Part shown: piece after piece, positions 3,563 through 17,784 of the stretch
Layout: every line of letters starts with the position of its first letter
How positions within the stretch are numbered: the first letter of the stretch is position 1
Origin: an uncultured Gammaproteobacteria bacterium
GTDB taxonomy: Bacteria > Patescibacteriota > Microgenomatia > Levybacterales > UBA12049
Length of the DNA stretch: 52,553 bases
NCBI GenBank assembly: GCA_964635045.1
Contig: CAZWMJ010000005.1
Span: forward strand, 1 to 52,553
Direction: 5' to 3'
The notes under the pieces: model-generated
Database searches by the model: none
Seen by the model: only the letters and a program-made list of their open reading frames with translations
Told to the model about the DNA's origin: nothing
Position numbers and translations under genes: made by a program

Positions 3563-4138
3563 CTATTTAGCGCGTTTTAGGCGGTTCTTAAAGGTTGTGA
3601 ACTGTTCCTTAAATTTTTCATTTACTTCTTTGAATAATTCCGGTTTACCATCTATACTAGATAGTATGGAGTCCAACTTCTTTCGCTCTTTTTCGTCGCT
3701 TCTTTTGATAATTTCTTCAAGAATAAATTCGGGCAAAAAATACATGGAGTACCTGCGTTTGAAATTATACAAAGAGTAAGGGATATATTTCTCTTCAAGC
3801 GTATGTTCATATATCTTTTTTCCTTTTTTTGGAATCCTCCCAATAACCAGGCGAAAGCCACTGCCGGAGAGTGTTAACCAAGCGTTAACTCTGGCAACAG
3901 TATTAAAGCCAACTCTCAAAGCGGTTCGTATTTCTTCGTATGTTTTGCCGTTAATTAATAATCTTGCAACCTCCAACCGTTTTGCTAACATTTCAAGTTC
4001 TTGAGGGCCAAGTAAATCTGTTAAAAATTGTGCCGCTTCCTCTTTATTTTTAAGAGAAGTAATTGCCTCGCAAAAAGCTATTAAAAGTTTTTGTCTTTCT
4101 TCTTTATTCAATTTTGGAATTCTTGCAAACTTCGCCAT
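3563..4138 (-). CDS. TrpR-like (YerC/YecD family) HTH repressor with C-terminal extension
   Basis: FLTDLLGPQELEMLAKRLEVARLLINGKTYEEIRTALRVGFNTVARV matches the Trp repressor fold. Confidence 0.85.
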   Translation of the reverse strand: MAKFARIPKLNKEERQKLLIAFCEAITSLKNKEEAAQFLTDLLGPQELEMLAKRLEVARLLINGKTYEEIRTALRVGFNTVARVNAWLTLSGSGFRLVIGRIPKKGKKIYEHTLEEKYIPYSLYNFKRRYSMYFLPEFILEEIIKRSDEKERKKLDSILSSIDGKPELFKEVNEKFKEQFTTFKNRLKRAK

Positions 4139-4210: not shown

Positions 4211-5056
4211 ATGCTTGGCGAGGGACATAGAAGTATTGATTATAGATATTTTGATGAAGAAGTTGAAGGACCGTATCGAGGTATTATTCGAACTGGCAGT
4301 TATGGCTTAGTGTCGCTTGTTCGAGCGGATTTTGTACAGCAAGGAGTAGATAAGGCATTTAAGTCGAAAGCCAGATGGGGTTTGCGGTTAGGCGATTTTT
4401 TTAGCGGAGTTCGTCGTTCTTCTACGGCCGAAGCGTTTGACATAGGAGCAGTTACGCATCGGGTGATAGATGAGGGGGTAGCTAGAGAAGATGATATTGG
4501 AAGATTTCCCAGAGACGTAAAAAAAAGAAGCGATCTTATCAAACTTGCCAATATTATAGCGGGTATGGCGAGTTTGTATGGACATCGCGTTCTTCAAGAA
4601 CAAAGAACGGGAAATATTGGGCAACCTTATACTTTAGGTTTACAATTGTCCGATTTTTTGGAAGTGGTTCCGCCAGAGGTTGCCGCAAGAGTTCTTTTTG
4701 CCGCATCAGATCCTGATATCGCCCAAACAATTCTAAAAGGACAAGGCTCACTTCGAGGTCTTCGGCATATTGACGTGCAGCCTCATGCCGTTGAAGCAGT
4801 TGTTCTTTTGCCGAAAGACGCTCGGCACGAGATTTTTACACAAATGGTAGCGCTTGAGCCGGGAATAGGAGGAAGGGCAAATCGATTTTTTGGGGTGATT
4901 GCTTCCAACTGGGCAAACAGGACTTCGGATTATTGTGGCCAAACGCTCATATATCAAAACCTACAAGGCGACAGGGCCATGAGGCAAATTTTAGAAATGC
5001 AGACAGATTTAGCAGAACTTGGACCGCTTGTTAGAGGTGAGGCGGTCAGGAGTTAG
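4211..5056 (+). CDS. hypothetical protein (281 aa), opposite orientation inside the ilv/leu cluster
   Basis: Long ORF filling the trpR-ridA gap; TGcTATAAT at 4193-4201 just upstream; no recognisable motif. Confidence 0.7.
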
Positions 5057-5432
5057 AGATAAGGCCAATTGCCTCGATTTCGACAAGTGCTCCTTTGGGG
5101 AGACTTAAGACTTCAACTGTGGCACGGGCAGGTTTGCCGGTAAAAAACTTGGCATAAATCTCGTTCATTTTGGCAAAATCATTGATGTTTTTAAGATAAA
5201 CTGTGGTTTTAACCACTTTTGTCAAATCAGAACCGGCCGCCTCCAAAACAGCCTCGATATTTGTAATAACTTGTTTAACCTGATTTTCCAGCCCTTCAGC
5301 CAGACTGCCGGTTACAGGATCCATGCCGATTTGCGCCGCGCAGAAAACAAATCCTCCCGCCACCACCGCCTGTGAATACGGCCCAATTGCCTTCGGCGCT
5401 TTATTGGTTTGAATTGATTTAATTTTACTCAT
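5046..5432 (-). CDS. ridA: RidA/YjgF family enamine-imine deaminase
   Basis: [28 protein letters not shown] and LVEIEAI motifs. Confidence 0.93.
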
Positions 5433-7186
5433 GATGTTACTGCTCCCGTGCTGGCGCTTGAGACCAGTTTGGCGTATTTGGCCAAGACGCCTCTATTGTA
5501 TTTTGGTTTTGGCACCCGCCACTGACCTTTTCGTTTCGCCAGCTCACTGCTTGCCACTTCCAGATTAACTTCTCTTTTGGCCAAATCAATTGTAATTCTA
5601 TCTCCCTCTTTTATCAAGGCAATGGTGCCGCCCGCTTGAGCTTCGGGGGTAATATGGCCAATGGTGATTCCGTGGGTGCCGCCGGAGAAGCGGCCGTCGG
5701 TTATAAGCGTCACATCTTGTCCCAGACCCGCGCCCATCAGGGCAGCAGTAGGAGAGAGCATCTCCCGCATGCCCGGACCGCCTTTAGGCCCCTCATAGCG
5801 GATAACCATCACATCTCCTTTGTTAATCCTTTTTTGCAGAATAGCATCAAGAGCATCTTCTTCCCGTTCAAATATCCGGGCCGGGCCCTCAAACTTTTTG
5901 ACTTCGCGGCCGGAAAGCTTGATGATGGCTCCCTCGCGGGCCAAGTTGCCGTAGATAATGATCATGTGGTGTTCGGGTTTAGCCAACGGTTTATCAATCG
6001 GATAGATAACATTTTGACCTTTGGGGAAATCGGGAGCAGTTTGCAAATTTTCTGCCACGGTTTTTCCGGTGACCGTCAAACAATCGCCATGAATAAGTCC
6101 GGCCCGCAAAAGCATTTTCATCACCATCGGTATTCCTCCGATATTATCCAAGTCTGCCATGACATATTGACCAAAAGGCTTGAAATTGCCCAGAAGCGGC
6201 ACTTTTTTGGCAATTCTGCTAAAGTCATCAAGATTTAATTTAATTTCTGCTTCATGAGCTAAGGACAAAAGATGGAGTACCATGTTGGTGGAGCCGCCCA
6301 GAGCCAAGGCCACGGTGATGGCATTTTCAAAAGCCTTTTTGGTCATAATATCACGCACGTGAATATCTTTTTCTAAAAGATGAAAAAGGGCCTTGGCGGT
6401 TTCAATGCTGTCGCGGCGTTTTTTATCGGAAATGCGGTTTTTTTCATCCACTGCCGGATGTGAGGCGCTACCCGGAATACTCATACCCAATGCCTCAAGA
6501 ACCGAGGCCATGGTATTGGCGGTGTACATGCCCCCGCAGGAGCCGTTGCCCGGACAACTGCGGCATTCTATTTCATGAAAATCCTTTTCACTCATCTTGC
6601 CCGCCGAGTACTGTCCAATTGCTTCAAAAGTGCTAACAATAGTTAAGTCTTGGCCTTTATAATGACCCGGCAATATTGTTCCGCCATAAAGAGTGATGCC
6701 GATACTGTTGTTTCTAGCCAGAGGAATAAGAGAAGCGGGAATTGTCTTATCGCATCCTGATAGTGTTATTGCCCCGTCTGCCGCGTAGGCTTCATGCATC
6801 ATTTCAATGGAGTCGGCGATTAGCTCCCGTGAAGGAAGCGAATATTTCATGCCTTCCATACCCATGGTTTCTCCGTCGGTGACCACCGGCGTGCCAAAAA
6901 TAATCCCCTTGCCGCCCTGCTTTTCCAGCTCGTCCATTATTAAATTTCCTAAATCGTAAATATGGGCGTTGCAGGGAGTGATATTGGTAAAAGGACAGGC
7001 CACAGTTATAAGAGGTTTGGTAAAATCGTTATCTTTAAAACCTACGGCCCTCATCATGGCCCGGGCATGAGCCCGTTTTACCCAATCTTTGCCGTTTAGA
7101 CTTCCCGTCAAAGCGGTACTGCGTATTTTTAGGTCCTGGCAGTCGCAGTTTTCACAATCTTCACAATGGCCGGTATTTTTTTTCAT
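5429..7186 (-). CDS. ilvD: dihydroxy-acid dehydratase
   Basis: [46 protein letters not shown] and TDGRFSGG motifs. Confidence 0.97.
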
Positions 7187-8673
7187 ACAATCTTTTGCAG
7201 TCCGTCAAGATAAGCCTTGACCGATGCCACCACAATATCGGTATCGGCGCCAAAACCAAAATAAATGTTGTTTTTATAATTAAGCTGAATATGCACCTTG
7301 CCGATGTCGTCGCTGCCCCCAGTTATGGCCTGCACCAAATACTCTTCCAACAAAACTTTTTTGTTGACAATTTTGTTAACCGCGTTAAAAGAAGCATCAA
7401 CAGGGCCGTTTCCCGAGGCCTTGGCAGTTTTTTCCACTCCCTTAATTTTAAGCCTTATTTCTGCCGACGGCTTTGTTTTGGTACCGGAAGAGACATTAAG
7501 CGACACAAGAGCCAGACCGGTTTCAGCACCCTTTTGGCCCATCAGCACGTGTAGATCATCGTCATTAATATCCTTTTTTTTGTCGGCAAATTCCAGGAAT
7601 TTTTGATACAGACTGTCAAGTTTTTCCTGTGAGATTTCGTAGCCCAGTCTTTCCAAGTGATGGCGCAGAGCCGATCTTCCGGAACGGGCTGTTAAAACAA
7701 GTTGCGACTGAGTAATTCCCACATCCTGCGGGTTGATAATTTCGTAGTTTAGTCTATTTTTCAAAACCCCGTTTTGGTGAATACCGGAGGAGTGGGCAAA
7801 GGCGTTTCGCCCGACGATGGCCTTATTGGCCTGAACAGGCATGCGCATAAGACGGGATACAAGGCGGGAAGTTCGGGCAATTTTTTCGGTATTGATATTG
7901 GTTTTACTAGCAAGATCCTGACGAGTTTTGATAATCATTACCACTTCCTCTAACGCGGTGTTTCCCGCCCGCTCTCCCAAACCATTGACAGTTACTTCTA
8001 TTTGCGTGGCGCCATTGATAACAGAAATGATAGTATTGGCAGTGGCCAGGCCCAAATCGTTATGGCAATGAACAGAAACGATTACTTTGTCAATTCCTTT
8101 GACATTTTCAAATAAGTATTTTATTTTTGCTCCAAATTCATCCGGCAGGCAGTAGCCGGTGGTGTCGGGAATATTTACAGTGGTGGCTCCGGCTTTGATT
8201 GCTTCTTCAATAAAGCGGGCTAAAAAGGCGTTTTCCGTTCGTCCGGCGTCCATGGCGGAAAATTCCACATCGTGGGCAAATTTTTTGGCGTATTTTATTG
8301 CGTCAATGCCCTGCTGAAGAATTTTTTCTCTCGTTGAACGAAACTGATATTTAATGTGTACGTCGGAACTGCTGATAAAAGTGTGAATTCTTTTATTTTT
8401 GGCTTTTTCCAGTGAAGATGCCGCCGCGTCAATATCCTCTTTAATGGCTCGGGCAAGGGCGCAGATAACCGGCCGTCTGACTGTTTTTGAAACTTCAATA
8501 ATAGATTTGAGATCTCCCGGGCTGGAAATGGGAAACCCTGCCTCAATAATATCAACGCCTAAATCGTCCAAAGCTTGCGCCACCTCAATTTTTTCAATGG
8601 TATTTAATTGACAGCCCGGCACCTGCTCCCCGTCTCTAAGTGTAGTATCAAAAACAAAAATCTGCCGTTTCAT
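7183..8673 (-). CDS. leuA: 2-isopropylmalate synthase
   Basis: [25 protein letters not shown] and GNGPVDA motifs. Start moved to ATG 8673 (ATGA overlap with the ilvC stop); the ORF-track extension runs through repeat DNA. Confidence 0.95.
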
Positions 8674-9788
8674 TTCTTTACCTCGCCCGCCATCGCTACG
8701 CTCAGGCGTTGCGGGCGGGTCCTTTCCGGGCGAAGACCTGTACCAGACGGTACGGGTCGCAGTTCTCTCACTTTCGCTCCTGCTCTCCACATTTCTGAAT
8801 TTCTCATTTCTAAGAGTTCTTTTTCTAACCCTTTTTTGTAGTCAGGTTTACTGTTGGCTTTAATTACTACTTGCGCTTCATGTCCGTTTTTTACTTTTTG
8901 ATACAATTCCTCAAAAACCGGCTCCACCGCTTTTCTAAATTTGTGCCGCCAATCCAGCGCTCCTCTTTGAGCGGTGGTGGAACAGTTGGCGTACATCCAG
9001 TCCATGCCGTTTTCCGCAATTAATGGGATTAGGCTTTGAGTCAGTTCCTCCACCGTTTCATTAAACGCCTCGCTGGGGCTGTGTCCCATCCTTCGCAAAA
9101 TGTTGTATTGAGCTTCCATAATACCGGCCGTAGCTCCCATCAGCACTCCCCGCTCGCCGGTGAGATCGCTGAACACCTCTTTTTCAAATGTAGTTTCAAA
9201 TAGGTAACCCGATCCAATGCCAATTCCCATAGCCAAAACTTTTTCTCTCGCCTTTCCTGTGGCGTCCTGATAGAGAGCAAAACTGCTATTTATTCCCTTT
9301 CCTTCCAAAAAGAGTTTACGAACCGTTCTGCCGGAACCTTTGGGGGCTACCAGAATAACATCGACGGTTTTTGGCGGAACAATACCGGTGTGTTTTTTGT
9401 AGGTAATGCCAAAGCCATGCGAGAAATAGAGCGCCTTACCTTTTGCTAGATGCCTTTTAATAGTTGGCCAGGCTTCAATTTGTCCGGCATCGGACAGCAA
9501 ATAGGCAATAATTGTACCCCGTCCGGCCGCTTCTTCTATTTCAAAAAGCGACTTATTTGGTTTCCATCCATCAGTTACGGCTTTCTTCCAGGAGTCGCCG
9601 CCTTTTCTTTGGCCGACAATCACATTAAAGCCGTTGTCGCGCAAATTAAGAGCCTGCGCCGGTCCCTGAACGCCATAGCCGATAACAGAAATAACTTCGT
9701 TTTTAAGCGTCTGTTTGGCTTTTGAGAGAGGAAATTCACTTCTAGTTACCACTTCCTCTGCGACGTCGCCAAATTTCATTTTTGTCAT
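8670..9788 (-). CDS. ilvC: ketol-acid reductoisomerase with a repeat-derived C-terminal tail
   Basis: [21 protein letters not shown] and [12 protein letters not shown] motifs; N-terminal [10 protein letters not shown] as in Bacteroidetes/fungal-type KARI. Confidence 0.95.
8681..8720. repeat. palindromic element (CCCGCCATCGC...GCTCAGGCGTTGCGGGC family) in the ilvC 3' end
   Basis: cctcgcccgccatcgctacgctcaggcgttgcgggcgggt; both arms shared with 29281-29328. Confidence 0.8.
8735..8758. repeat. 24-bp imperfect palindrome, in frame in ilvC
   Basis: gacctgtacc-agac-ggtacgggtc (9/10 bp stem); the protein reads [12 protein letters not shown]. Confidence 0.65.
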
Positions 9789-9798
9789 AAAATCTCCT

Positions 9799-11463
9799 TT
9801 AGCTAAATTTTTTATTGAGATAATTTACCAGTCTTCTTAGTCCTTGACGCAATACATCGTCTTCGCAGCCAAACGAGATGCGGATGTGATTTTCTCCGCC
9901 CGGCCCAAAAGGCGAGCCGGGAACAACCGCCACTTTGGCTTGTTTTATTAGCTCAACAGCAAATTTTCTATCGTCAACAGGTTTGGTAATTTTGGGAAAA
10001 GCATAATAGGCGCCCTGTATGGGAGTAGATTGTAAAAATGGCGTCTTGGCTAATTCTTCCTCCACAATTTTTCTTCGCCGCACGTAAGCCTTTTTATACT
10101 CATCATAAACATTTTTGCCCTCAAGTGCTGAAAGAGCCGCGTATTGGGATGGGGCGGCGGGACAGGTAACAATGGCATCATGAACCTTAAAAATTCTGTC
10201 GATAAGTGGTTGACTGGCTACAATATAGCCGATTCTCCAGCCGGTCATGGCGTATGATTTGGAAACTCCAAAAACCGAGATGATTTTACTGCCGGCGCTA
10301 TGAAGGCTGGCAATACTGACATGTTTTTTTCCGTCGTAAACAAAATTTTCATACATTTCATCGGAGATGATAATTAAATCGTGTTTACGGGCTATTTTTA
10401 TAATATCGGTCAGTTCCTTTTTACTATAAACTTTGCCTGTTGGATTGCTGGGATTGCAAATCACTATGGCCCGCGTTTGGGGGGTGATGGCTTTTTCCAA
10501 AGATTCGGTATTTAACAGCCACCCCTCTTTAGTTTCTTCCATAGGCACATAAATAGGCGAGCGGCCGCGCAAAGCAATCCTTATTTGTGTAATATGTGGA
10601 TTGTAATTGGGCGATGGCATTAAGATATCATCCTGCGGATCAAGAATGCTTAAGAAAATTGCCATCATTGCTTCCATTGCGCCGTGGGCGACAATTACTT
10701 GAGAAGGGGAAACAGCGATGCCGTTATCCCGTTTGACCTTTTTGGCAATTGCCGCCCGCAGTGGTTCAATCCCATAGCCGGCCGTATATTTATCGGTGAG
10801 ATTTTGGTCCATTGCCCGCTTGACTGCCTGTTTTATATGAGCGGACGTGAAAAAGGATGGAGTTCCCTGAGCCAGAGAAATAACGTCCTTATTCTGTTTG
10901 GCTAATAACTCTATCTGTTTTATGACGGAAACCTCAATGGTGGAAGTAACATGCGGACTATCCACCTTCTTGGTTGGCTCTTTCTCCAAAGCAATTCTGC
11001 CCGAGCGAACAACATCCTCAATACCAAATGGTACAAGCTTAGATCTTAGATGATCAATCTCCTCTTCGGTACCTGTCTTTTCTACAATGACATAGTTTTT
11101 GCCTCTATGTGTAATATTGCTCCCTGTGCGGTAAGCAATATGCTGAATGTCCTGGGCTTCTTTCGGGCTTTTGTCTTTTACCTTAAAAAGGGCAATTTCT
11201 TTGAAAATAAGGTCTTTGTCGCCGTGCGCATGCACACTTAGCACCTCAATAATTCTTTGCAGTTGATTGGTGATTTTAGCGATAATTTCGGGATTTTCTT
11301 TGACCGCAATGGTAAAGCGCGAAACGTGTTTTTCTTCGATTTCCGAAACAGTCAGACTTTCAATATTGATTTTGCGTCTAAGAAACTGATTGGCGATATG
11401 ATACAAAACGCCCGGCCTATTTTCGGAAAATACGGTTATTGTTGTTGTTTGTTTTTGTTCCAT
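9799..11463 (-). CDS. ilvH: acetolactate synthase regulatory subunit (ACT domains) fused to a class I PLP aminotransferase
   Basis: aa 1-160: ENRPGVLYHIANQFLRRKINIESLTV and VVRSGRIAL. C-terminal part: QGTP, CNPSNPTG, SDEMY, SKSYAMTGWRIG (PLP lysine) and PGSPFG. Confidence 0.9.
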   Translation of the reverse strand: MEQKQTTTITVFSENRPGVLYHIANQFLRRKINIESLTVSEIEEKHVSRFTIAVKENPEIIAKITNQLQRIIEVLSVHAHGDKDLIFKEIALFKVKDKSPKEAQDIQHIAYRTGSNITHRGKNYVIVEKTGTEEEIDHLRSKLVPFGIEDVVRSGRIALEKEPTKKVDSPHVTSTIEVSVIKQIELLAKQNKDVISLAQGTPSFFTSAHIKQAVKRAMDQNLTDKYTAGYGIEPLRAAIAKKVKRDNGIAVSPSQVIVAHGAMEAMMAIFLSILDPQDDILMPSPNYNPHITQIRIALRGRSPIYVPMEETKEGWLLNTESLEKAITPQTRAIVICNPSNPTGKVYSKKELTDIIKIARKHDLIIISDEMYENFVYDGKKHVSIASLHSAGSKIISVFGVSKSYAMTGWRIGYIVASQPLIDRIFKVHDAIVTCPAAPSQYAALSALEGKNVYDEYKKAYVRRRKIVEEELAKTPFLQSTPIQGAYYAFPKITKPVDDRKFAVELIKQAKVAVVPGSPFGPGGENHIRISFGCEDDVLRQGLRRLVNYLNKKFS

Positions 11464-11467
11464 ATGC

Positions 11468-13153
11468 TTACTCCAAAACTATTTCATCGCAGGCAGCACC
11501 TGATGGTACCATCGGAAAAACATTTTCTTCTTTCTCGCAGACCACCTCAAGCAAGTACGCCTCTTTTGCCGAAAGAAGTTTATCTATTTCTCCATTAAGT
11601 TTTGAGCGCTTATCAACTGATTGGGCCTTAATATAAAAGCCTTTGGCAACAGCCACAAAATCAGGATTTTTTAAGTCCACAAATGAGTAGCGCTTTTCAA
11701 AAAAAAGCTGCTGCCACTGGCGGACCATGCCAAGAAAGTTATTATTCAGTATAACTATTTTTAGCGGGATTTGGTCCTGGGCAATGGTTGCCAGCTCTTG
11801 AACGGTCATTTGAAACCCTCCATCGCCGATAACTACGATGACCTGTCGATTGGGAGAGGCGATTTTAGCGCCAACGCCGGCCGGCAGGGCAAATCCCATT
11901 GTCCCCAATCCGCCCGATGTGATAAAACTATTCGGTTTTACAAAATTATAGTAGCGCGCCGCTATCATTTGGTTCTGGCCAACGTCTGCCACAATAATTG
12001 CTTCTCCTTTTGTTTTTTCCGAAAGGAGTTGTACCACTTGTACCATTTTTATCTCATCATGCTTTGACAGCATTTCCTTTTTGGTCACTTTTTCGTATTC
12101 GATTTGATCGTATTTTCGAAACTGCGACAGCCAGCCGTCGTGAGTATTTTTCTTTATTATTGGCAAAAGCTTTGAGAGTGCTTGCTTGGCGTCGGCGTTT
12201 ATAGCCACATCGGCCTTAACATTTTTATTAAGTTCGGCGCTGTCAATATCTATGTGTATTATTTTTGCCTGCCTTGCGTAATCGTCAACTTTGCCGGTCA
12301 CTCTATCGTCGAAACGCATCCCTACAGCCAAAATCACATCAGCTTTGTTAGTCAAAATGTTTGCTCCATAGCGTCCATGCATGCCCAAAAGCCCCACATA
12401 TAATGGGTGATTGGCCGGCATGGCAGAAAGTCCGTGCAGTGTTGTGCCAACAGCAATGCCGCTTTTTTCAGCAAATGCCAACACTTCTTTCTCAGCATGA
12501 GCAATAAGAATGCCATGACCTATCAGCATAAATGGCCTTTTTGCCTTATTTATAAGCTGTGCCGCCTTTTTAAGATCATTTTGACTTATCGAATAGGTCG
12601 GATTATAACCTGGAATTTTTATTGCTTTTTGCGGTTTATAATCAAAAGTTTCAATTTGCGCATTTTTGGTGATATCAATTACCACCGGTCCGGGTCTGCC
12701 CGAGCCGGCTATAAAAAATGCTTTTTTAAGAATGTACGGAATTTCCGAAGCGTTGGTTATTTGATAATTCCATTTTGCAATAGGCGTTGTTATTCCAATA
12801 ACATCTGTTTCCTGGAAAGCATCCGTGCCAACTAAGTGCGCTGTCACCTGCCCGCTTATAAAAACCACCGGCACCGAATCCAGCATGGCATCGGCAATGC
12901 CCGTAACTAAGTTGGTGGCGCCCGGACCGGAGGTCACCAACACCACTCCCGGTTTGCCTGTTATTCGGGCGTATCCTTCGGCGGCATGTGCCGCCCCCTG
13001 TTCATGCCGCACCAAAATATGGCGTATTTGTTTATTATAGTCGTACAGCGCATCGTATACAGGCATGATAGCGCCTCCCGGATAGCCAAAAATTACTTTT
13101 ACTCCTTCGTTAACGAGCGATTTACAAACAGCTTGCGCTCCTGTTATTTTCAT
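11468..13153 (-). CDS. ilvB: acetolactate synthase catalytic subunit
   Basis: FGYPGGA, RHEQGAAHAA, TSGPGATN, SGGLGTMG and GDGGFQM...NN ThDP motif. Confidence 0.97.
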   Translation of the reverse strand: MKITGAQAVCKSLVNEGVKVIFGYPGGAIMPVYDALYDYNKQIRHILVRHEQGAAHAAEGYARITGKPGVVLVTSGPGATNLVTGIADAMLDSVPVVFISGQVTAHLVGTDAFQETDVIGITTPIAKWNYQITNASEIPYILKKAFFIAGSGRPGPVVIDITKNAQIETFDYKPQKAIKIPGYNPTYSISQNDLKKAAQLINKAKRPFMLIGHGILIAHAEKEVLAFAEKSGIAVGTTLHGLSAMPANHPLYVGLLGMHGRYGANILTNKADVILAVGMRFDDRVTGKVDDYARQAKIIHIDIDSAELNKNVKADVAINADAKQALSKLLPIIKKNTHDGWLSQFRKYDQIEYEKVTKKEMLSKHDEIKMVQVVQLLSEKTKGEAIIVADVGQNQMIAARYYNFVKPNSFITSGGLGTMGFALPAGVGAKIASPNRQVIVVIGDGGFQMTVQELATIAQDQIPLKIVILNNNFLGMVRQWQQLFFEKRYSFVDLKNPDFVAVAKGFYIKAQSVDKRSKLNGEIDKLLSAKEAYLLEVVCEKEENVFPMVPSGAACDEIVLE

Positions 13154-13156
13154 AAG

Positions 13157-14086
13157 TTATACCTTTATTTTTGTGCACCACTTCTCATACTTTTTTTCCC
13201 TTCCATAAACGATGGAAAAATAAAGCTGCTGAAGTTTTGCCGTAATGGGACCCCGTTTCCCATCGCCGATGGTACGGTTATCGACCTTGGCAATCCAGGC
13301 CACTTGTACGCCGGTTCCGCTAAAGAATGCTTCATCGGCAATATAAAGCTCCGTTCTATCAATTGTTCGGACTTGTGTTTTAATACCCAAATCCTCTGCC
13401 AGTTGTAAAATAGTGCGTCTGGTTATTCCTTCAAGAATATCATCAGTTACGGGCGGGGTTAGCAAAACGCCGTCCCGCACCACAAAAATATTTTCGGCAG
13501 AACCCTCAGACAGATGACCGTCTTCTGTCAGCATGATCGCCTCGTCAAAACCCAGCTTTGTGGCTTCCTGCCGGGCAAGGGCGGAATTTATGTAGGAGCC
13601 GGAAATTTTGCCGCGGGCGGGAATAGCGTTGTCGGAAATTCGCCTCCACGATGACACCATGGCCGAAAGACCCTTATCAACCGGTAGGTATTCGCCAAGA
13701 GGCATCATATAAAGCGCGAATTCAAAGGCGGCGTCTCTTTCAAGGTTGGGCGATAGATTAGTACTGCCGGCGTAGGCAAAAGGCCGCATATAGGTATCGG
13801 TGGCCGGCTTATTGTTTTTAACAAGTTCAAGGGTAATCTTTTTGAGCTGCGCCTCATCGTATGGTATGTGCGTTCCTATAATCTTCAAAGAAGAAAGAAA
13901 CCGTTTGTAGTGATCTTCTATTCGAAACAGAGATAAATATTTACCCTTTTTATTATAGTATCCCCTAATACCGCCGAACACACCCGTGCCATATTGCAGG
14001 GCGTTAGTCATAATAGGAACATTGGCGTCCTCCGTTTTGACAACTTTGCCTTGAAAAAATATATGTGGAAAATATTCGCTTTTCAT
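13157..14086 (-). CDS. ilvE: branched-chain amino acid aminotransferase
   Basis: LQYGTGVFGGIRGY, GKISGSYINS, SEGSAEN and ILEGITR motifs; start moved to ATG 14086, downstream of the terminator. Confidence 0.95.
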   Translation of the reverse strand: MKSEYFPHIFFQGKVVKTEDANVPIMTNALQYGTGVFGGIRGYYNKKGKYLSLFRIEDHYKRFLSSLKIIGTHIPYDEAQLKKITLELVKNNKPATDTYMRPFAYAGSTNLSPNLERDAAFEFALYMMPLGEYLPVDKGLSAMVSSWRRISDNAIPARGKISGSYINSALARQEATKLGFDEAIMLTEDGHLSEGSAENIFVVRDGVLLTPPVTDDILEGITRRTILQLAEDLGIKTQVRTIDRTELYIADEAFFSGTGVQVAWIAKVDNRTIGDGKRGPITAKLQQLYFSIVYGREKKYEKWCTKIKV

Positions 14087-14089
14087 ACT

Positions 14090-14114
14090 AAAAACCCGCC
14101 CATACGGCGGGAAG
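14090..14114 (-). terminator. attenuator terminator hairpin
   Basis: Minus strand CCCGCC-GTATG-GGCGGG followed by TTTTT. Confidence 0.85.
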
Positions 14115-14149
14115 ATTTGTTGCCTTGCCAACTGGCGCACCTCCCGCCC
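14090..14149 (-). promoter_or_regulatory. transcription attenuator with mutually exclusive antiterminator and terminator
   Basis: GGCGGGAGG just after the leader stop pairs with CTTCCCGCC (9 bp, one G:U), the 5' arm of the terminator. Confidence 0.8.
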
Positions 14150-14197
14150 TTAGCGAGTAACGAGAAGAACAACAATTGACAAACTTATGTTAGTCAT
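14150..14197 (-). CDS. ilv/leu leader peptide MTNISLSIVVLLVTR (15 aa)
   Basis: ATG ACT AAC ATA AGT TTG TCA ATT GTT GTT CTT CTC GTT ACT CGC TAA; run of I-V-V-L-L-V codons; below the ORF-track cutoff. Confidence 0.85.
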   Translation of the reverse strand: MTNISLSIVVLLVTR

Positions 14198-14206
14198 GTA
14201 AATACT

Positions 14207-14235
14207 ATTGTAGTACACTTTTTTTGAAAAAGCAA
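14207..14235 (-). promoter_or_regulatory. sigma70 promoter of the ilv operon
   Basis: TTGCTT (14235-14230), 17 nt, TACAAT (14212-14207); TACTA-CAA-TAGTA palindrome over the -10. Confidence 0.7.
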
Positions 14236-14236
14236 G

Positions 14237-14884
14237 TTATCCGGTTTGGGATGCTAAAACACGTTCGTTGGACAAGCCGAAGGTGGTGCCGTGCTTTTTG
14301 AACATACTCCAATATTGTTTTTGTTTTTTCTTGCTTTTGAACATGGATAGCCATGAAGTAGCGTCTTCAATTCTCATTCGGGCGTGTTTTACAAAATTCA
14401 ATAGCCACGCGAAAAAGTTTTCATGATAAGCGCCTATTTTTGCCGGAATTTGTTCTACCACTATTTGTTTGTAGGTAATTTGAAGTTCCTGAGATTTTGA
14501 GATAAGCACTCTTAACTCAAAAAGAATCTCCTGAATTTTTTGTGTAACGCTTTGGTCTTTTTCTCTCTCAATTCTTTCTCCCGCATGCAAAATTTCCCGT
14601 CTGTAGTCAATGCCCGGTTCCACATTCCAGGCCTTTTTTTCGGAACGTTTTTCCGCCAGTTGGCTTAAATTTAATTCCTGTCCTTCCAAAAGATCTCCGC
14701 CACTGCGCGTTCCGTCACTGCGTTCATGTCCTCCTAACATTTGATTCCAAATACTATTTACCGATTCTTTGGCAAAATCAGAAGTAAAAGATCGGGCAAC
14801 TGCGCCGGGAATAGACTTTACATTCTCAAAAGAGTCTTGCTCGACAAGTCTTTCTGTTTTTACTTTTGTTTTATTACTTTTCAT
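14237..14884 (-). CDS. conserved Microgenomates hypothetical protein (DUF5660-like)
   Basis: C-terminal YWSMFKKHGTTFGLSNER and GIDYRREI motifs; family name from recall. Confidence 0.6.
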   Translation of the reverse strand: MKSNKTKVKTERLVEQDSFENVKSIPGAVARSFTSDFAKESVNSIWNQMLGGHERSDGTRSGGDLLEGQELNLSQLAEKRSEKKAWNVEPGIDYRREILHAGERIEREKDQSVTQKIQEILFELRVLISKSQELQITYKQIVVEQIPAKIGAYHENFFAWLLNFVKHARMRIEDATSWLSMFKSKKKQKQYWSMFKKHGTTFGLSNERVLASQTG

Positions 14885-14898
14885 TATGGGTTACAATA

Positions 14899-15738
14899 TC
14901 ACAAATTTTTCAGAAAATCAAGTGTTTTTTGCTGACGCAAGATACCGGCCAAAAGATATCTGTTTGCTTCAAGGGCTTTTCTCTCTCCAGCGCTTTTGCC
15001 TTTTTGGACAGCTTCTTCGATTTCTTTATCATTTACCGTAATATGTTCATCCTCGGCAATTTTTTGCAGAGCAAATTCCAGTTTAAGATCGCCCTCCGCT
15101 TTTCTTTGATATTCGTCCCTAAGAGACTGAGGCGTTCTTCCGGATGAAGAAAGATACTGATCAAGGCTAAGGCCTAATTTTTTAACGTCGTCCAATGTTT
15201 GCGACAAAAGTCTTTCCACCTGCTGATCAAGAAGAATTTGAGGAACAACGACAGTCAGACCCCCTATAAGAGCGGCAATAATATCTTCAAACTTTGTCGG
15301 TAGAGGCTCCTTGCCCGGGACAATAATTTTACTTTTGGCTGTGACCGTTTGAATATTTTTTTTATAATCTCCAAGTTGAATTTCGGGGGTCTCGCAGGTT
15401 AACGCATAAAATTGCCAATCGCGCGGGGAAGTGATGGGATCATCCAGTTTCTCTACGTGAATTTTAGGAGTAATAATGGGTTTAATCGAATGTTCTTTGA
15501 TAGCCTCCAAATAATACTGAGGAAGCAGTTTTTTGAGCACTTCTTCTTTTACTTCTTCCCGATTTATTTTTTCCTCGGCAATTTTTTTTGGGGCCTTACC
15601 TTTTCTAAAACCGGGAACTGAGAGCGATTTAGCCTTTTTTACCAGCTCTTCTTCGAACGCCTTTTTTACGGCGTCATTGGGAATTGTTACGGTCAATTTT
15701 ACTGTCCCGTCTGATAATTTTTGCAATGCAGATATCAT
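14899..15738 (-). CDS. tig: trigger factor, short form (ribosome-binding plus C domain, no PPIase)
   Basis: GFRKGKAP signature; 279 aa; start moved to ATG 15738, outside the tRNA. Confidence 0.85.
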   Translation of the reverse strand: MISALQKLSDGTVKLTVTIPNDAVKKAFEEELVKKAKSLSVPGFRKGKAPKKIAEEKINREEVKEEVLKKLLPQYYLEAIKEHSIKPIITPKIHVEKLDDPITSPRDWQFYALTCETPEIQLGDYKKNIQTVTAKSKIIVPGKEPLPTKFEDIIAALIGGLTVVVPQILLDQQVERLLSQTLDDVKKLGLSLDQYLSSSGRTPQSLRDEYQRKAEGDLKLEFALQKIAEDEHITVNDKEIEEAVQKGKSAGERKALEANRYLLAGILRQQKTLDFLKNL

Positions 15739-15744
15739 ATCAAG

Positions 15745-15825
15745 TGCGGGCGGAGGGATTTGAACCCCCACGAGTTTCCTCACAAGGTTCTAAACCTTGC
15801 GTGTCTGCCATTTCACCACGCCCGC
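15745..15825 (-). tRNA. tRNA-Leu(TAG)
   Basis: GCGGGCG acceptor, CAAGG-TTTAGAA-CCTTG anticodon arm, long variable arm, GGTTCAAATCC. Confidence 0.95.
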
Positions 15826-15858: not shown

Positions 15859-16416
15859 TTATAAAGAAATGTGAAGTGCGCTTGAAGGGTTATTTTCGGC
15901 AAATCGGTCTATTTTGTTTATTGTGCCTTCAACTCTTTGCGCCCACGTGGGAGAGGCGGAGTATATTCTGCCAATGGAATACACATCTTCGACTTTCCAC
16001 GAGTTAATATACTGTTCGCGCAGCCCTTTGGAGACAACTTCAATGCCTTCGTCAAACGAAGAAAATCGAATGACATTGTCTCCATATATACCCCATCCCC
16101 ACGCATTGTATGAATTGGTAGGAATTTGTTGGCCATAGGTTGACTCAATAGCCGAGATAGCCACCAGCAGTTTCCAGTCAAGTTGATATTTATCGGCGAC
16201 TTTTACAAATGTTTCGGCAGAAGGAGTCAGCGGCGAATCGTATTGTTTAAGATATTGTGTAAGTATTTTTGCGCGGACGTCTTCTTTCATAACAGGAGAA
16301 GCAGGCATGAGAACAGCAGATGAACCTGATGCTTTTTGCTCGGCGTATATTTTCTGTGGATTTAAAATTGAGATAGATATGATGACAAACAAAGTTATTG
16401 CAACTTTTATCTGCAT
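15859..16416 (-). CDS. membrane-anchored lysozyme-like/glucosaminidase-domain protein
   Basis: N-terminal TM; DWKLLVAISAIESTYG and YNAWGWG; paralog of 16515-17069; start moved to ATG 16416. Confidence 0.65.
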   Translation of the reverse strand: MQIKVAITLFVIISISILNPQKIYAEQKASGSSAVLMPASPVMKEDVRAKILTQYLKQYDSPLTPSAETFVKVADKYQLDWKLLVAISAIESTYGQQIPTNSYNAWGWGIYGDNVIRFSSFDEGIEVVSKGLREQYINSWKVEDVYSIGRIYSASPTWAQRVEGTINKIDRFAENNPSSALHISL

Positions 16417-16418
16417 AT

Positions 16419-16460
16419 AAAAAAATCCTAACGTACGCCGTTTATGACATACCTTAGGAT
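16419..16460 (-). terminator. terminator-like hairpin with U-tract occupying the 5' UTR
   Basis: ATCCTAA-G-GTATGTC-ATAAAC-GGCGTAC-G-TTAGGAT then TTTTTT; ends 2 nt before ATG 16416. Confidence 0.6.
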
Positions 16461-16469
16461 CTGATAGGG

Positions 16470-16498
16470 ATTGTATCACATAACTATAGGTTTGTCAA
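16470..16498 (-). promoter_or_regulatory. sigma70 promoter
   Basis: TTGACA (16498-16493), 17 nt, TACAAT (16475-16470). Confidence 0.75.
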
Positions 16499-16514: not shown

Positions 16515-17069
16515 TTATAGCTGATTCATGAAGTGAGTGACGCCTCTTGCCCAACTGCCGTCGCTTGGAGGAGTGTAAACCTTCATTATTTGCTCAGGCG
16601 TTTCCAAACCTTTTTGTTTGTATTCCTTTGCCAGCGTCTTTGTTACAATATCTATCCCTTCCTGATAACTTTGAAATTTTCTTACTTTGTTGCCATAAAT
16701 ACCAAATCCCCAGCAATTGTATGAGCCTAATGGAGCTTTTTTACACAAGTTAGATTCTTGCATTGCAATGGCAGGCAGAAGACGAAAATCAATGCCATAG
16801 AGCTCGGCGGCATCTATTATATTTTGAGCATAAGGTTGAAGAGGAGACTGGTATTTGGCAAAAAATTCACTAATTGACTCCAAGCGATTATCTTTTCCAA
16901 CCACATCGCTTGTCAGAACATTTTGTGTGGCCGGTAAGGCGGCGAAGGCAATACTTTTTGGCGCATCGTTATTCTGTTTATACGACAGAAAAAGAAAATA
17001 AGTCAGAGTGAAAACAAAAACAATCGGCGCTAAAAGTACAAAAGTTACGAGCAGGTATAGCCTTTGCAT
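16515..17069 (-). CDS. membrane-anchored lysozyme-like/glucosaminidase-domain protein
   Basis: N-terminal TM; IDFRLLPAIAMQESNL and YNCWGFG. Confidence 0.65.
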   Translation of the reverse strand: MQRLYLLVTFVLLAPIVFVFTLTYFLFLSYKQNNDAPKSIAFAALPATQNVLTSDVVGKDNRLESISEFFAKYQSPLQPYAQNIIDAAELYGIDFRLLPAIAMQESNLCKKAPLGSYNCWGFGIYGNKVRKFQSYQEGIDIVTKTLAKEYKQKGLETPEQIMKVYTPPSDGSWARGVTHFMNQL

Positions 17070-17209: not shown

Positions 17210-17296
17210 GCGGACGTGGCGGAATGGTAGACGCGATAGGTTCAGGACCTATTGACCCAAAAGGTCATGGGGGTTCAACTCCCTTCGTCCGCACCA
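17210..17296 (+). tRNA. tRNA-Leu(CAG)
   Basis: GCGGACG acceptor, ATAGG-TTCAGGA-CCTAT, long variable arm, ends ACCA. Confidence 0.95.
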
Positions 17297-17317
17297 CTTC
17301 GACAGGTTTAGTGTAAG
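17295..17317 (+). repeat. tRNA-abutting repeat (CACTTCG...CAGTGTAA family), degenerate copy
   Basis: cacttcgacaggtttagtgtaag overlaps the CCA of tRNA-Leu(CAG). Confidence 0.6.
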
Positions 17318-17320
17318 CAA

Positions 17321-17403
17321 GGGTCGGTGGCGGAACTTGGTATACGCGCATGCTTGAGGTGCATGTCCCGCAAGGGGTGGAGGTTCAACTCCTCTCCGAC
17401 CCA
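17321..17403 (+). tRNA. tRNA-Leu(GAG)
   Basis: GGGTCGG acceptor, CATGC-TTGAGGT-GCATG, long variable arm. Confidence 0.95.
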
Positions 17404-17404
17404 C

Positions 17405-17486
17405 ATCTGCAAAGCAGATTTCTGATATTTCATGTTTACATTTTAAAAAGCTTAAAATTGAAAAGTAAAAATTCTGCTCTGCAGAA
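17405..17486 (+). mobile_element. 82-bp internally deleted (MITE-like) derivative of the GIY-YIG element at 23128-23436
   Basis: Ends ATCTGC-AAA-GCAGAT and TTCTGC-TCT-GCAGAA; interior 17425-17457 reads (I)FHVYILKSLK, a GIY-YIG N-terminus. Confidence 0.75.
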
Positions 17487-17561
17487 GGTCGATTAGCTCA
17501 ATGGTAGAGCGCTTCGTTTACATCGAAGATGTTGGGGGTTCGAGTCCCTCATCGACCACCA
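17487..17561 (+). tRNA. tRNA-Val(TAC)
   Basis: GGTCGAT acceptor, CTTCG-TTTACAT-CGAAG, ends ACCA. Confidence 0.96.
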
Positions 17562-17583
17562 TTTGTTGTATAATAAAGGTCCT

Positions 17584-17656
17584 GCCGAAGTTGCCAATGT
17601 GGTCAAGGCGTCCGCCTGAAGAGCGGATTATCGGTGTTCGATTCACCGCTTCGGCA
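17584..17656 (+). tRNA. tRNA-Phe(GAA)
   Basis: GCCGAAG acceptor, TCCGC-CTGAAGA-GCGGA, CGGTG-TTCGATT-CACCG; atypical GCC/GGC D-stem. Confidence 0.88.
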
Positions 17657-17684
17657 CCCGCCAAAAATTGAATATTTGGGCGGG
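17657..17684. repeat. spacer hairpin joining tRNA-Phe and tRNA-Gly
   Basis: cccgcc-aaaaattgaatatttg-ggcggg; starts right after the Phe discriminator and its last G is +1 of tRNA-Gly. Confidence 0.6.
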
Positions 17685-17755
17685 CGCGAGTAGTTCAGTG
17701 GTAGAACGTCTCGTTGCCAACGAGAAGGTCGCCGGTTCAATCCCGGTCTCGCGCT
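17684..17755 (+). tRNA. tRNA-Gly(GCC)
   Basis: GCGCGAG acceptor, TCTCG-TTGCCAA-CGAGA, U73. Confidence 0.96.
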
Positions 17756-17784
17756 CAAGGAGTCTGACTCGGCTAATTATTGCT

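Follow-up and report, generated by a model that had tools for sequence, protein, structure and literature searches.

The window, by which we mean the whole 52,553-nt stretch of DNA that was analyzed and that makes up an entire NCBI contig, carries a cluster of genes for branched-chain amino acid (BCAA) biosynthesis in the order ilvE-ilvB-ilvN-ilvC-leuA-ilvD, and leuC, leuD, and leuB are found farther along, beyond ilvD. The first gene of the operon, ilvE, encodes a branched-chain aminotransferase and is separated from a DUF5660 gene, its upstream neighbor, by a gap of 150 nt that contains the region described here (Table 1). The ilvN product is a 554-aa fusion of ACT_AHAS_ss and ALS_ss_C with a full class I/II aminotransferase; the same fusion is encoded in the related loci L161, L162, and L165, and a separate 159-aa ilvN was observed in L168 and L171. 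The cluster is interrupted between ilvD and leuC by a gene for a YerC/YecD TrpR-related protein, which may regulate the leu genes, and by a 281-aa ORF. The trigger factor of 294 aa encoded beyond the DUF5660 gene contains Trigger_N and Trigger_C only, with no PPIase domain, and its true start should be later than the GTG, because the GTG-start ORF overlaps the gene for tRNA-Leu(UAG). Adjacent to each other are also two paralogous glucosaminidase-like genes, separated by a strong terminator-like hairpin (-19.7 kcal/mol, U7, U-tract from 16425). The window has 16 tRNA genes, and a tRNA gene cluster was observed 3 kb upstream of the ilvE leader region.

The preliminary description had assigned this DNA to a CPR genome, and the relatives of three proteins uphold the assignment. 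IlvD belongs to a cluster, formed at 90% identity, that bears the name Candidatus Microgenomates; UvrA, encoded 28 kb away, has named relatives only in Candidatus Levybacteria and Patescibacteria, with 71-74% identity; and the relatives of IlvE are Levy-, Roizman-, and Woesebacteria. Many of the species-representative MAGs with a CPR-like ilvE and a leader have the record titles 'uncultured Gammaproteobacteria bacterium' or 'Neisseria sp.' (L001-L005, L007, L009, L010, L013, L014, L018, L019, L021, and L028), and such titles seem to be placeholders or taxonomic mislabels. When the ilvE ORF was called mechanically, it started at a GTG and crossed both the terminator and the antiterminator described below, and several database IlvE homologues have similar N-terminal extensions (326-334 aa; P0006, P0021, and P0023). 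Since homologues are annotated with such extensions, gene callers probably carry the ilvE start too far upstream, over the attenuator, where no Shine-Dalgarno (SD) sequence is present.

Table 1. Positions of the genes and of the predicted regulatory features in the window.
Feature	Position	Strand	Basis or remark
YerC/YecD TrpR-related gene	3563-4138	minus	
281-aa ORF	4211-5056	plus	no Pfam match
Rest of operon, ilvB to ilvD	5429-13153	minus	Pfam
ilvD	5429-7186	minus	Pfam
leuA ORF	7183-8790	minus	Pfam; true start probably later
ilvC	8670-9788	minus	Pfam
ilvN-aminotransferase fusion	9799-11463	minus	Pfam
ilvB	11468-13153	minus	Pfam
ilvE, first operon gene	13157-14086	minus	Pfam Aminotran_4; NCBIfam NF005146, 375 bits vs cut-off 279
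ilvE ORF as called mechanically	13157-14140	minus	GTG start at 14140; 327 aa
ilvE ATG	14086	minus	after AGU spacer; no SD
Attenuator region	14090-14235	minus	
Region 4, terminator 3' arm GGCGGG + U5	14100-14095 + 14094-14090	minus	
Terminator loop GUAUG	14105-14101	minus	
CUUCCCGCC	14114-14106	minus	ends in the terminator 5' arm CCCGCC (14111-14106)
Region 3, CUUCCCGCCGU	14114-14104	minus	antiterminator partner of region 2
Region 2, protector helix 3' arm	14150-14124	minus	begins at last base of stop codon
AGGGCGGGAGG	14150-14140	minus	first 11 nt of region 2; antiterminator 5' strand
GGCGGGAGG, post-stop segment	14148-14140	minus	
Region 1, protector (anti-antiterminator) helix 5' arm	14183-14156	minus	in leader ORF
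Candidate control codons I8 V9 V10 L11 L12 V13	14176-14159	minus	AUU GUU GUU CUU CUC GUU
L6 codon	14182-14180	minus	also within protector helix
Leader ORF MTNISLSIVVLLVTR	14197-14150	minus	15 codons + TAA (14152-14150)
Leader ATG	14197-14195	minus	sequence
-10 box TACAAT	14212-14207	minus	9 nt ahead of leader ATG
Promoter spacer	17 nt	minus	sequence
-35 box TTGCTT	14235-14230	minus	1 nt past DUF5660 TAA
DUF5660 gene	14237-14884		TAA stop 14239-14237
Trigger factor gene	14899-15783	minus	
tRNA-Leu(UAG) gene	15744-15825		
Glucosaminidase-like paralogues	15859-16479, 16515-17069	minus	
tRNA gene cluster	17210-17756		Leu(CAG), Leu(GAG), Val(UAC), Phe, Gly

The promoter TTGCTT-17-TACAAT, the 9-nt gap, and the 15-codon ORF with 2 Ile, 3 Val, and 3 Leu that had been described before were all found, on the minus strand. 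The segment that follows the stop codon was also located where it had been placed and is complementary to the stretch with the terminator 5' arm, and the terminator CCCGCC-GUAUG-GGCGGG-U5 lies just ahead of ilvE; the distance from the U-tract to the ilvE ATG, previously given as 4 nt, is 3 nt. The -35 box agrees with the consensus at 3 of 6 positions, and the whole promoter at 8 of 12. The output of the consensus promoter scan did not include the window promoter, because of this poor -35 box. Moreover, the automatic promoter picker preferred other hexamers in the window, L161, and L162; we retained TTGCTT-17-TA(C/A)(A/C)AT, whose position is conserved among these three loci and with L014. TTGCTT is also present in L161, L162, and L014, and TTGCAA or TTGACA in the remaining homologues. 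The window promoter is credible mainly because it aligns with TTGcaa-17-TATAAT promoters at homologous loci: a clear TTGnnn-16/18-TATAAT-type promoter, with the end of the -10 box 7-16 nt ahead of the ATG, was found at 13 loci, and the window, L161, and L162 showed weaker boxes at the same place. When an SD-like motif was sought in the 20 nt 5' of the leader ATG, none of the 16 loci had one. The short distance from the -10 box to the ATG and the lack of an SD indicate that the leader ORF is effectively leaderless, with a 5' UTR that, judging from the -10 position, would be about 2-3 nt. The essentially leaderless leader peptide proposed earlier is, thus, in line with a near-leaderless promoter geometry that is conserved in related CPR genomes.

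In the window leader, 8 of the 15 residues are Ile, Val, or Leu, including a run of six. The homologous leader ORFs have 14-18 codons (16 complete loci) and encode peptides such as MKNKVLSVVILLTR, MKNKVLSIVVLLIR, MHILSSYIIVLLINR, MNRNFSTIVVLLINPA, MNTNLLVLLVNVINQI, and MNKNSLLLVVDLLILVEK; over the 16 leaders, these three amino acids make up 118 of 252 residues (0.47), compared with 0.245 in the proteins of the window. The alternative frames over the leader span were open at few loci, the +1 frame at 1 of 16 and the +2 frame at 3 of 16. A short ORF rich in codons for the end products was, thus, found ahead of the biosynthetic operon, as in classical attenuators. The stop codon lies in or beside the apex of the protector helix in most loci, 0-6 nt ahead of region 2. 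Rare-codon control was also considered and was ruled out by the leader codons, which are mostly common; only CUC is rare, with 6% of Leu codons. The conservation of the peptide is not independent evidence of translation, because RNA pairing also puts a constraint on some of the conserved codons (CUC CUU, AAC CGC).

The terminator was the top entry of the terminator scan and the sole site with 6 G-C pairs (-13.1 kcal/mol). No other intergenic terminator in the window has such an ORF ahead of it, and no further attenuators were found elsewhere in the window. The minimum free energy fold of the region (z = -3.25) has as its dominant feature a 25-bp helix of regions 1 and 2, which pairs leader codons 5-14 with the post-stop segment and is followed by the terminator. 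The G-rich strand has two competing partners, either CUUCUCGUU, which corresponds to the Leu-Leu-Val codons (helix 1:2), or CUUCCCGCC (helix 2:3). The preliminary description had overlooked this protector helix; once it is included, the 1:2, 2:3, and 3:4 pairings of a four-region attenuator are complete, and the folds point to the 1:2 helix as the part that would actually couple codon stalling to antitermination.

Folding of both conformers, which had been proposed as a check, yielded the terminator fold and the antiterminator fold, with the position of the ribosome deciding between them. The free RNA folded into 1:2 plus 3:4, at -39.2 kcal/mol. When the A site was placed at I8, V9, or V10 and the bases to +12 were masked, a 10-bp antiterminator of region 3 with the first 11 nt of region 2 was formed, along with the pairing ACUCGCU:GGCGGGU that sequestered region 4, at about -32 kcal/mol; with the ribosome at the stop codon, the antiterminator strand was masked and the terminator was formed, at -18.3 kcal/mol. 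The duplex of regions 2 and 3 in the window had an energy of -19.0 kcal/mol versus -13.1 for the terminator, and 1.4% of shuffled sequences equaled it. In the ribosome-mask scan of the window, the terminator probability was about 0 with the A site at S5 to V10 and went up to 1.0 by R15 and the stop codon. When the same scan was applied to the homologues, an equilibrium switch between terminator and antiterminator was clear in about 6 of 16, partial in 5, and absent in 5. We did not take the equilibrium scan as proof, and folds of the nascent transcript fit a kinetic mechanism better; indeed, kinetic, co-transcriptional folding is required by the model, because the equilibrium switch is clear in so few loci, and a kinetic decision is also found in classical systems. 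In nascent folds without the terminator 3' arm, a stall in the Ile/Leu/Val run let region 2 pair with virtually all of the terminator 5' arm at 13 of 16 loci, and a ribosome at the stop codon left this arm fully free in only 5 of 16.

For the comparative analysis, ilvE loci were drawn from species-representative genomes, metagenomes, and contigs that encode the closest IlvE proteins; the metagenome scan contributed only about 9 CPR-like loci. The preliminary description had also suggested looking at orthologous clusters, and a homologous leader, with Ile/Val/Leu codons and covarying helices, was found 5' of ilvE in 17 non-redundant CPR loci (16 complete and non-identical, and 1 cut by the end of the contig). 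All 16 complete homologues showed a terminator with U5-U9 between the leader ORF and ilvE, a 1:2 protector helix of 17-28 bp over the control codons, and an antiterminator helix that cannot coexist with the terminator. The pairing of each 1:2 helix with its own arm averaged -22.4 kcal/mol compared with -14.0 for foreign arms, and the own 3' arm was the best partner in 11 of 16; the sequence of the outer helix differs markedly between subgroups, with the complementarity kept. The duplexes of regions 2 and 3 ranged from -10.5 to -21.7 kcal/mol in all 16 loci, and in 12 of these, no more than 5% of shuffles matched them. Across the homologues, the antiterminator strand in region 2 tracks region 3 of its own locus. 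In L082 and L166, a distinct terminator, AUCUCCC/GGGAGAU, was found, and region 2 reads correspondingly GGAGAUC/GAGAU.

When the 16 leaders were aligned with MAFFT alone, the helices were shifted against each other, and the alignment had no value for counting pairs. It was replaced by per-sequence folds, self-versus-cross duplex tests, and an alignment guided by a covariance model, which was built from 8 leaders and recovered all the others. In this alignment, which was fitted to the model, 82.9% of the cells were paired versus 67.2% in shuffles. Compensatory changes were found at 19 of 21 pairs, and the covariation score was 0.356 compared with values of 0.10 or lower in slid controls, both from the fitted alignment and from sequences that are phylogenetically related. 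The model gave zero matches on about 700 kb of non-CPR ilvE loci. The window itself scored weakly with model R1 (24.9 bits, E = 0.06), because R1 was built from a different subgroup; we assigned it to the family on the basis of its anatomy and of L161 and L162, to which it is closely related, and not on this score.

The presence of the leader was associated with the gene that follows ilvE. Among non-redundant CPR-like loci, it was found in 17 of 18 when ilvB is next and in 0 of 19 with another downstream gene (Fisher's exact test, 1e-9, uncorrected for phylogeny). The lone ilvB-linked locus without a leader is L004, where the upstream sequence has just 180 nt. The genes upstream of ilvE vary and include DUF5660, chorismate synthase, and unknown genes, and in L174, a close relative with the same DUF5660-ilvE junction and no ilvB next, there is no leader. 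These observations bear on a simpler explanation, i.e., that the hairpin is a plain terminator of the tig-DUF5660 unit preceded by a chance ORF, or that the ORF encodes a functional small hydrophobic membrane peptide. The leader peptide is indeed hydrophobic, and the stretch from the DUF5660 stop to ilvE contains no second terminator, so that the hairpin probably also ends upstream transcripts; however, the element follows ilvE when the upstream neighbors differ, it is lacking at the L174 junction, it is linked to ilvB, and its helices covary. Since the comparative data tie it to ilvE-ilvB, the upstream-terminator version is largely refuted, and we consider this explanation, in both versions, hardly credible.

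It is very doubtful, moreover, that the hairpin acts mainly on translation, occluding the ilvE start until the alternative fold opens it, in a translational or dual control. The position of the ilvE ATG, 0-4 nt past the U-tract in the window, L161, and L162 and with no SD, is compatible with this; but the other 13 homologues start ilvE about 25-70 nt or more past the terminator, and the proximity is, therefore, not conserved. In addition, a stem followed by 5-9 U is a canonical intrinsic terminator.

When the window and 17 related loci were compared with Rfam 15, no family reached its gathering score. The best match to the window leader was Phe_leader (RF01859), with 17.6 bits versus a gathering score of 55 and E = 2.5, and the existing families of amino-acid leaders (Leu_leader, Thr_leader, His_leader, Trp_leader, Phe_leader, and others) were all sub-threshold. 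A T-box riboswitch was rejected, with no match in 13900-14400 even at E <= 10, and so was any other Rfam riboswitch identity, with no match at the gathering score and only the sub-threshold resemblance to Phe_leader at E <= 10.

The covariance model also matched elements that share this architecture but have different codon runs. A leader that begins with MDIEKFFFFFFTQ... (FFFFFF) was found 66 nt 5' of the gene for prephenate dehydratase (PDT, pheA), the Leu-rich MIKNLLLGLSLLSV was found 5' of leuA, and MNAGNIIITTIITTT..., with an Ile/Thr run, 5' of the genes for a P-loop kinase and threonine synthase (thrC; TIGR00260, 299 bits). Ile-rich leaders were also present in L164 and L170. The attenuators on the same scaffold are L170:4655-4765, L170:3046-3153, L170:3891-3995, L164:2967-3087, L164:3492-3631, L005:3977-4075, L009:5-104, and L003:2145-2259 (minus strand); those of L170 are three tandem attenuators in 1.8 kb where the gene caller put no genes. 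The identity of the codons, thus, matches the downstream operon, as expected of attenuators, both in the link to ilvB and in the Phe, Leu, and Ile/Thr leaders. A codon run that varies with the pathway on a constant RNA scaffold fits ribosome-mediated sensing, and an RNA that binds a ligand or a protein, or an ORF for a functional peptide, would not predict such a change.

These siblings are also relevant to the possibility that the attenuator is conserved but that a protein or a small ligand chooses the fold, with the short ORF being incidental or serving merely to unwind the helix. We regard this as unlikely. In its favor, when the candidate control codons of the Streptomyces coelicolor ilvB leader were mutated, regulation was unchanged (PMC1262725), and this result calls for caution over the stalling mechanism; moreover, the conservation of the peptide largely coincides with paired bases, and the ilv-leu cluster contains the YerC/YecD TrpR-related gene. 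On the other hand, the codon run follows the operon and the scaffold stays constant, the ATG keeps a constant, short spacing to the -10 box, the reading frame stays open, and the stop codon is near the helix apex. There is also no match to a Rfam riboswitch or T-box in the leader, and its 108 nt are too short for a T-box.

Collectively, the region is probably a classical ribosome-mediated (leader-peptide) transcription attenuator, predicted to control ilvE-ilvB-ilvN-ilvC-leuA-ilvD. The BCAA-sensing logic put forward in the preliminary description is, thus, supported in silico and comparatively, by the folds, the conservation, the covariation, the link to ilvB, and the siblings. From the sequence, we infer the transcription start, the translation of the ORF, the stalling or pausing, and the regulatory and physiological response as follows. 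Transcription would begin about 2-3 nt ahead of the leader AUG, and a 70S ribosome would load on the essentially leaderless mRNA. Leader codons L6-T14 (region 1) would pair with the post-stop segment (region 2) to form the protector helix. When charged Ile, Val, and Leu tRNAs are ample, the ribosome should reach the stop codon at the helix apex and cover AGGGCGGGAGG; with no ribosome, the 1:2 helix would sequester this strand instead. In either case, CCCGCC:GGCGGG would form and RNA polymerase would terminate at U5, 3 nt short of ilvE. Scarcity of a branched-chain tRNA would stall the ribosome on I8, V9, or V10 (possibly also on L6 or L11), with region 1 melted and region 2 left free. The free region 2 could then capture CUUCCCGCCGU before the terminator 3' arm exists, and the polymerase would enter the operon.

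The element is new and uncatalogued in Rfam; the type of switch is very well known, and regulation in the host phylum is essentially unexplored. How CPR/Patescibacteria regulate their genes is, to our knowledge, almost unknown, since nearly all of them are uncultivated. The preliminary description was aware of no report of leader-peptide attenuation in these bacteria, and a full-text search of a limited literature collection gave no relevant paper on the subject. It is likely that Microgenomates-type CPR bacteria have a whole set of Rfam-absent, leaderless attenuators that serve BCAA, Leu, Phe, and Thr/Ile operons on one scaffold (an ORF near the 5' end, a stop codon at the apex, an antiterminator strand of the GGCGGG type, and a CCCGCC/GGCGGG-U7 terminator). 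If so, there would for the first time be evidence that these bacteria, which are uncultivated and have reduced genomes, use the coupling of transcription and translation to sense tRNA charging, and their amino-acid pathways would be live and regulated, and not relics. A conserved family that can be read from the sequence suggests that at least the Levy/Roizmanbacteria-type lineages that keep the biosynthesis of BCAA, Phe, and Thr regulate it via the supply of charged tRNA, and such regulation implies coupled transcription-translation and an efficient initiation on leaderless mRNA. There is also a gain for annotation, since gene callers carry ilvE across the terminator and leave out the leader ORFs, and Rfam could receive a new covariance model. 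The compact element is testable in a heterologous host. The understanding of attenuation itself is unaltered: the mechanism can be found in textbooks, and Corynebacterium is already known to have a leaderless IlvL of 15 aa.

The enterobacterial ilvGMEDA (ilvL), ilvBN, and leu leaders have 28-32 codons, with an SD and a 5' UTR; their control codons are in region 1, the stop codon is near region 2, and the 3:4 pairing with a U-run is the terminator. The ilvGMEDA leader exerts a multivalent control by Ile, Val, and Leu. The window shares the four-region logic with these leaders; in contrast, its leader has 15 codons, no SD, and a near-leaderless start, and it was unmatched by the enterobacterial leader models of Rfam, the Phe_leader score being the best. 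The T-box of ilv-leu operons in Bacillus-type Firmicutes is about 200-300 nt long, binds tRNA directly, and needs no ORF. As in the T-box, the sensing of tRNA charging, proposed here, would be combined with a terminator/antiterminator switch ahead of the BCAA genes; unlike the T-box, the window element is 108 nt long and has a conserved ORF, and the T-box model did not match it.

For the leucine-rich attenuator peptide of Staphylococcus aureus and for Rli60 of Listeria, a short ORF with BCAA codons is reported to control read-through into ilv-leu (PMC5794164, PMC5864092), and the window is similar in having such an ORF ahead of ilv-leu genes. The Firmicute BCAA leaders work with CodY and often with T-boxes, whereas neither a T-box nor another Rfam element was found in the window. 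Among described systems, the nearest is ilvBNC of Corynebacterium glutamicum, in which the 15-aa IlvL MTIIRLVVVTARRLP contains 2 Ile, 3 Val, and 2 Leu, transcription starts 1 nt from the start codon, i.e., the mRNA is leaderless, and anti-antiterminator, antiterminator, and terminator hairpins provide multivalent BCAA control of the acetohydroxyacid synthase genes (PMC11857589). The architecture of the window element and that of the corynebacterial IlvL/ilvB-II motif are alike, with no Rfam match and a length so short that homology is hard to separate from convergence. The C. glutamicum system is backed by mutational and reporter evidence, whereas the case for the window element is computational and comparative. 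The two differ in phylum, in the length of the regulatory region (292 nt versus about 110 nt here), and in the first gene (ilvB versus ilvE), and they have in common the 15-aa leader and, as predicted for the window, the leaderless start and the three hairpins.
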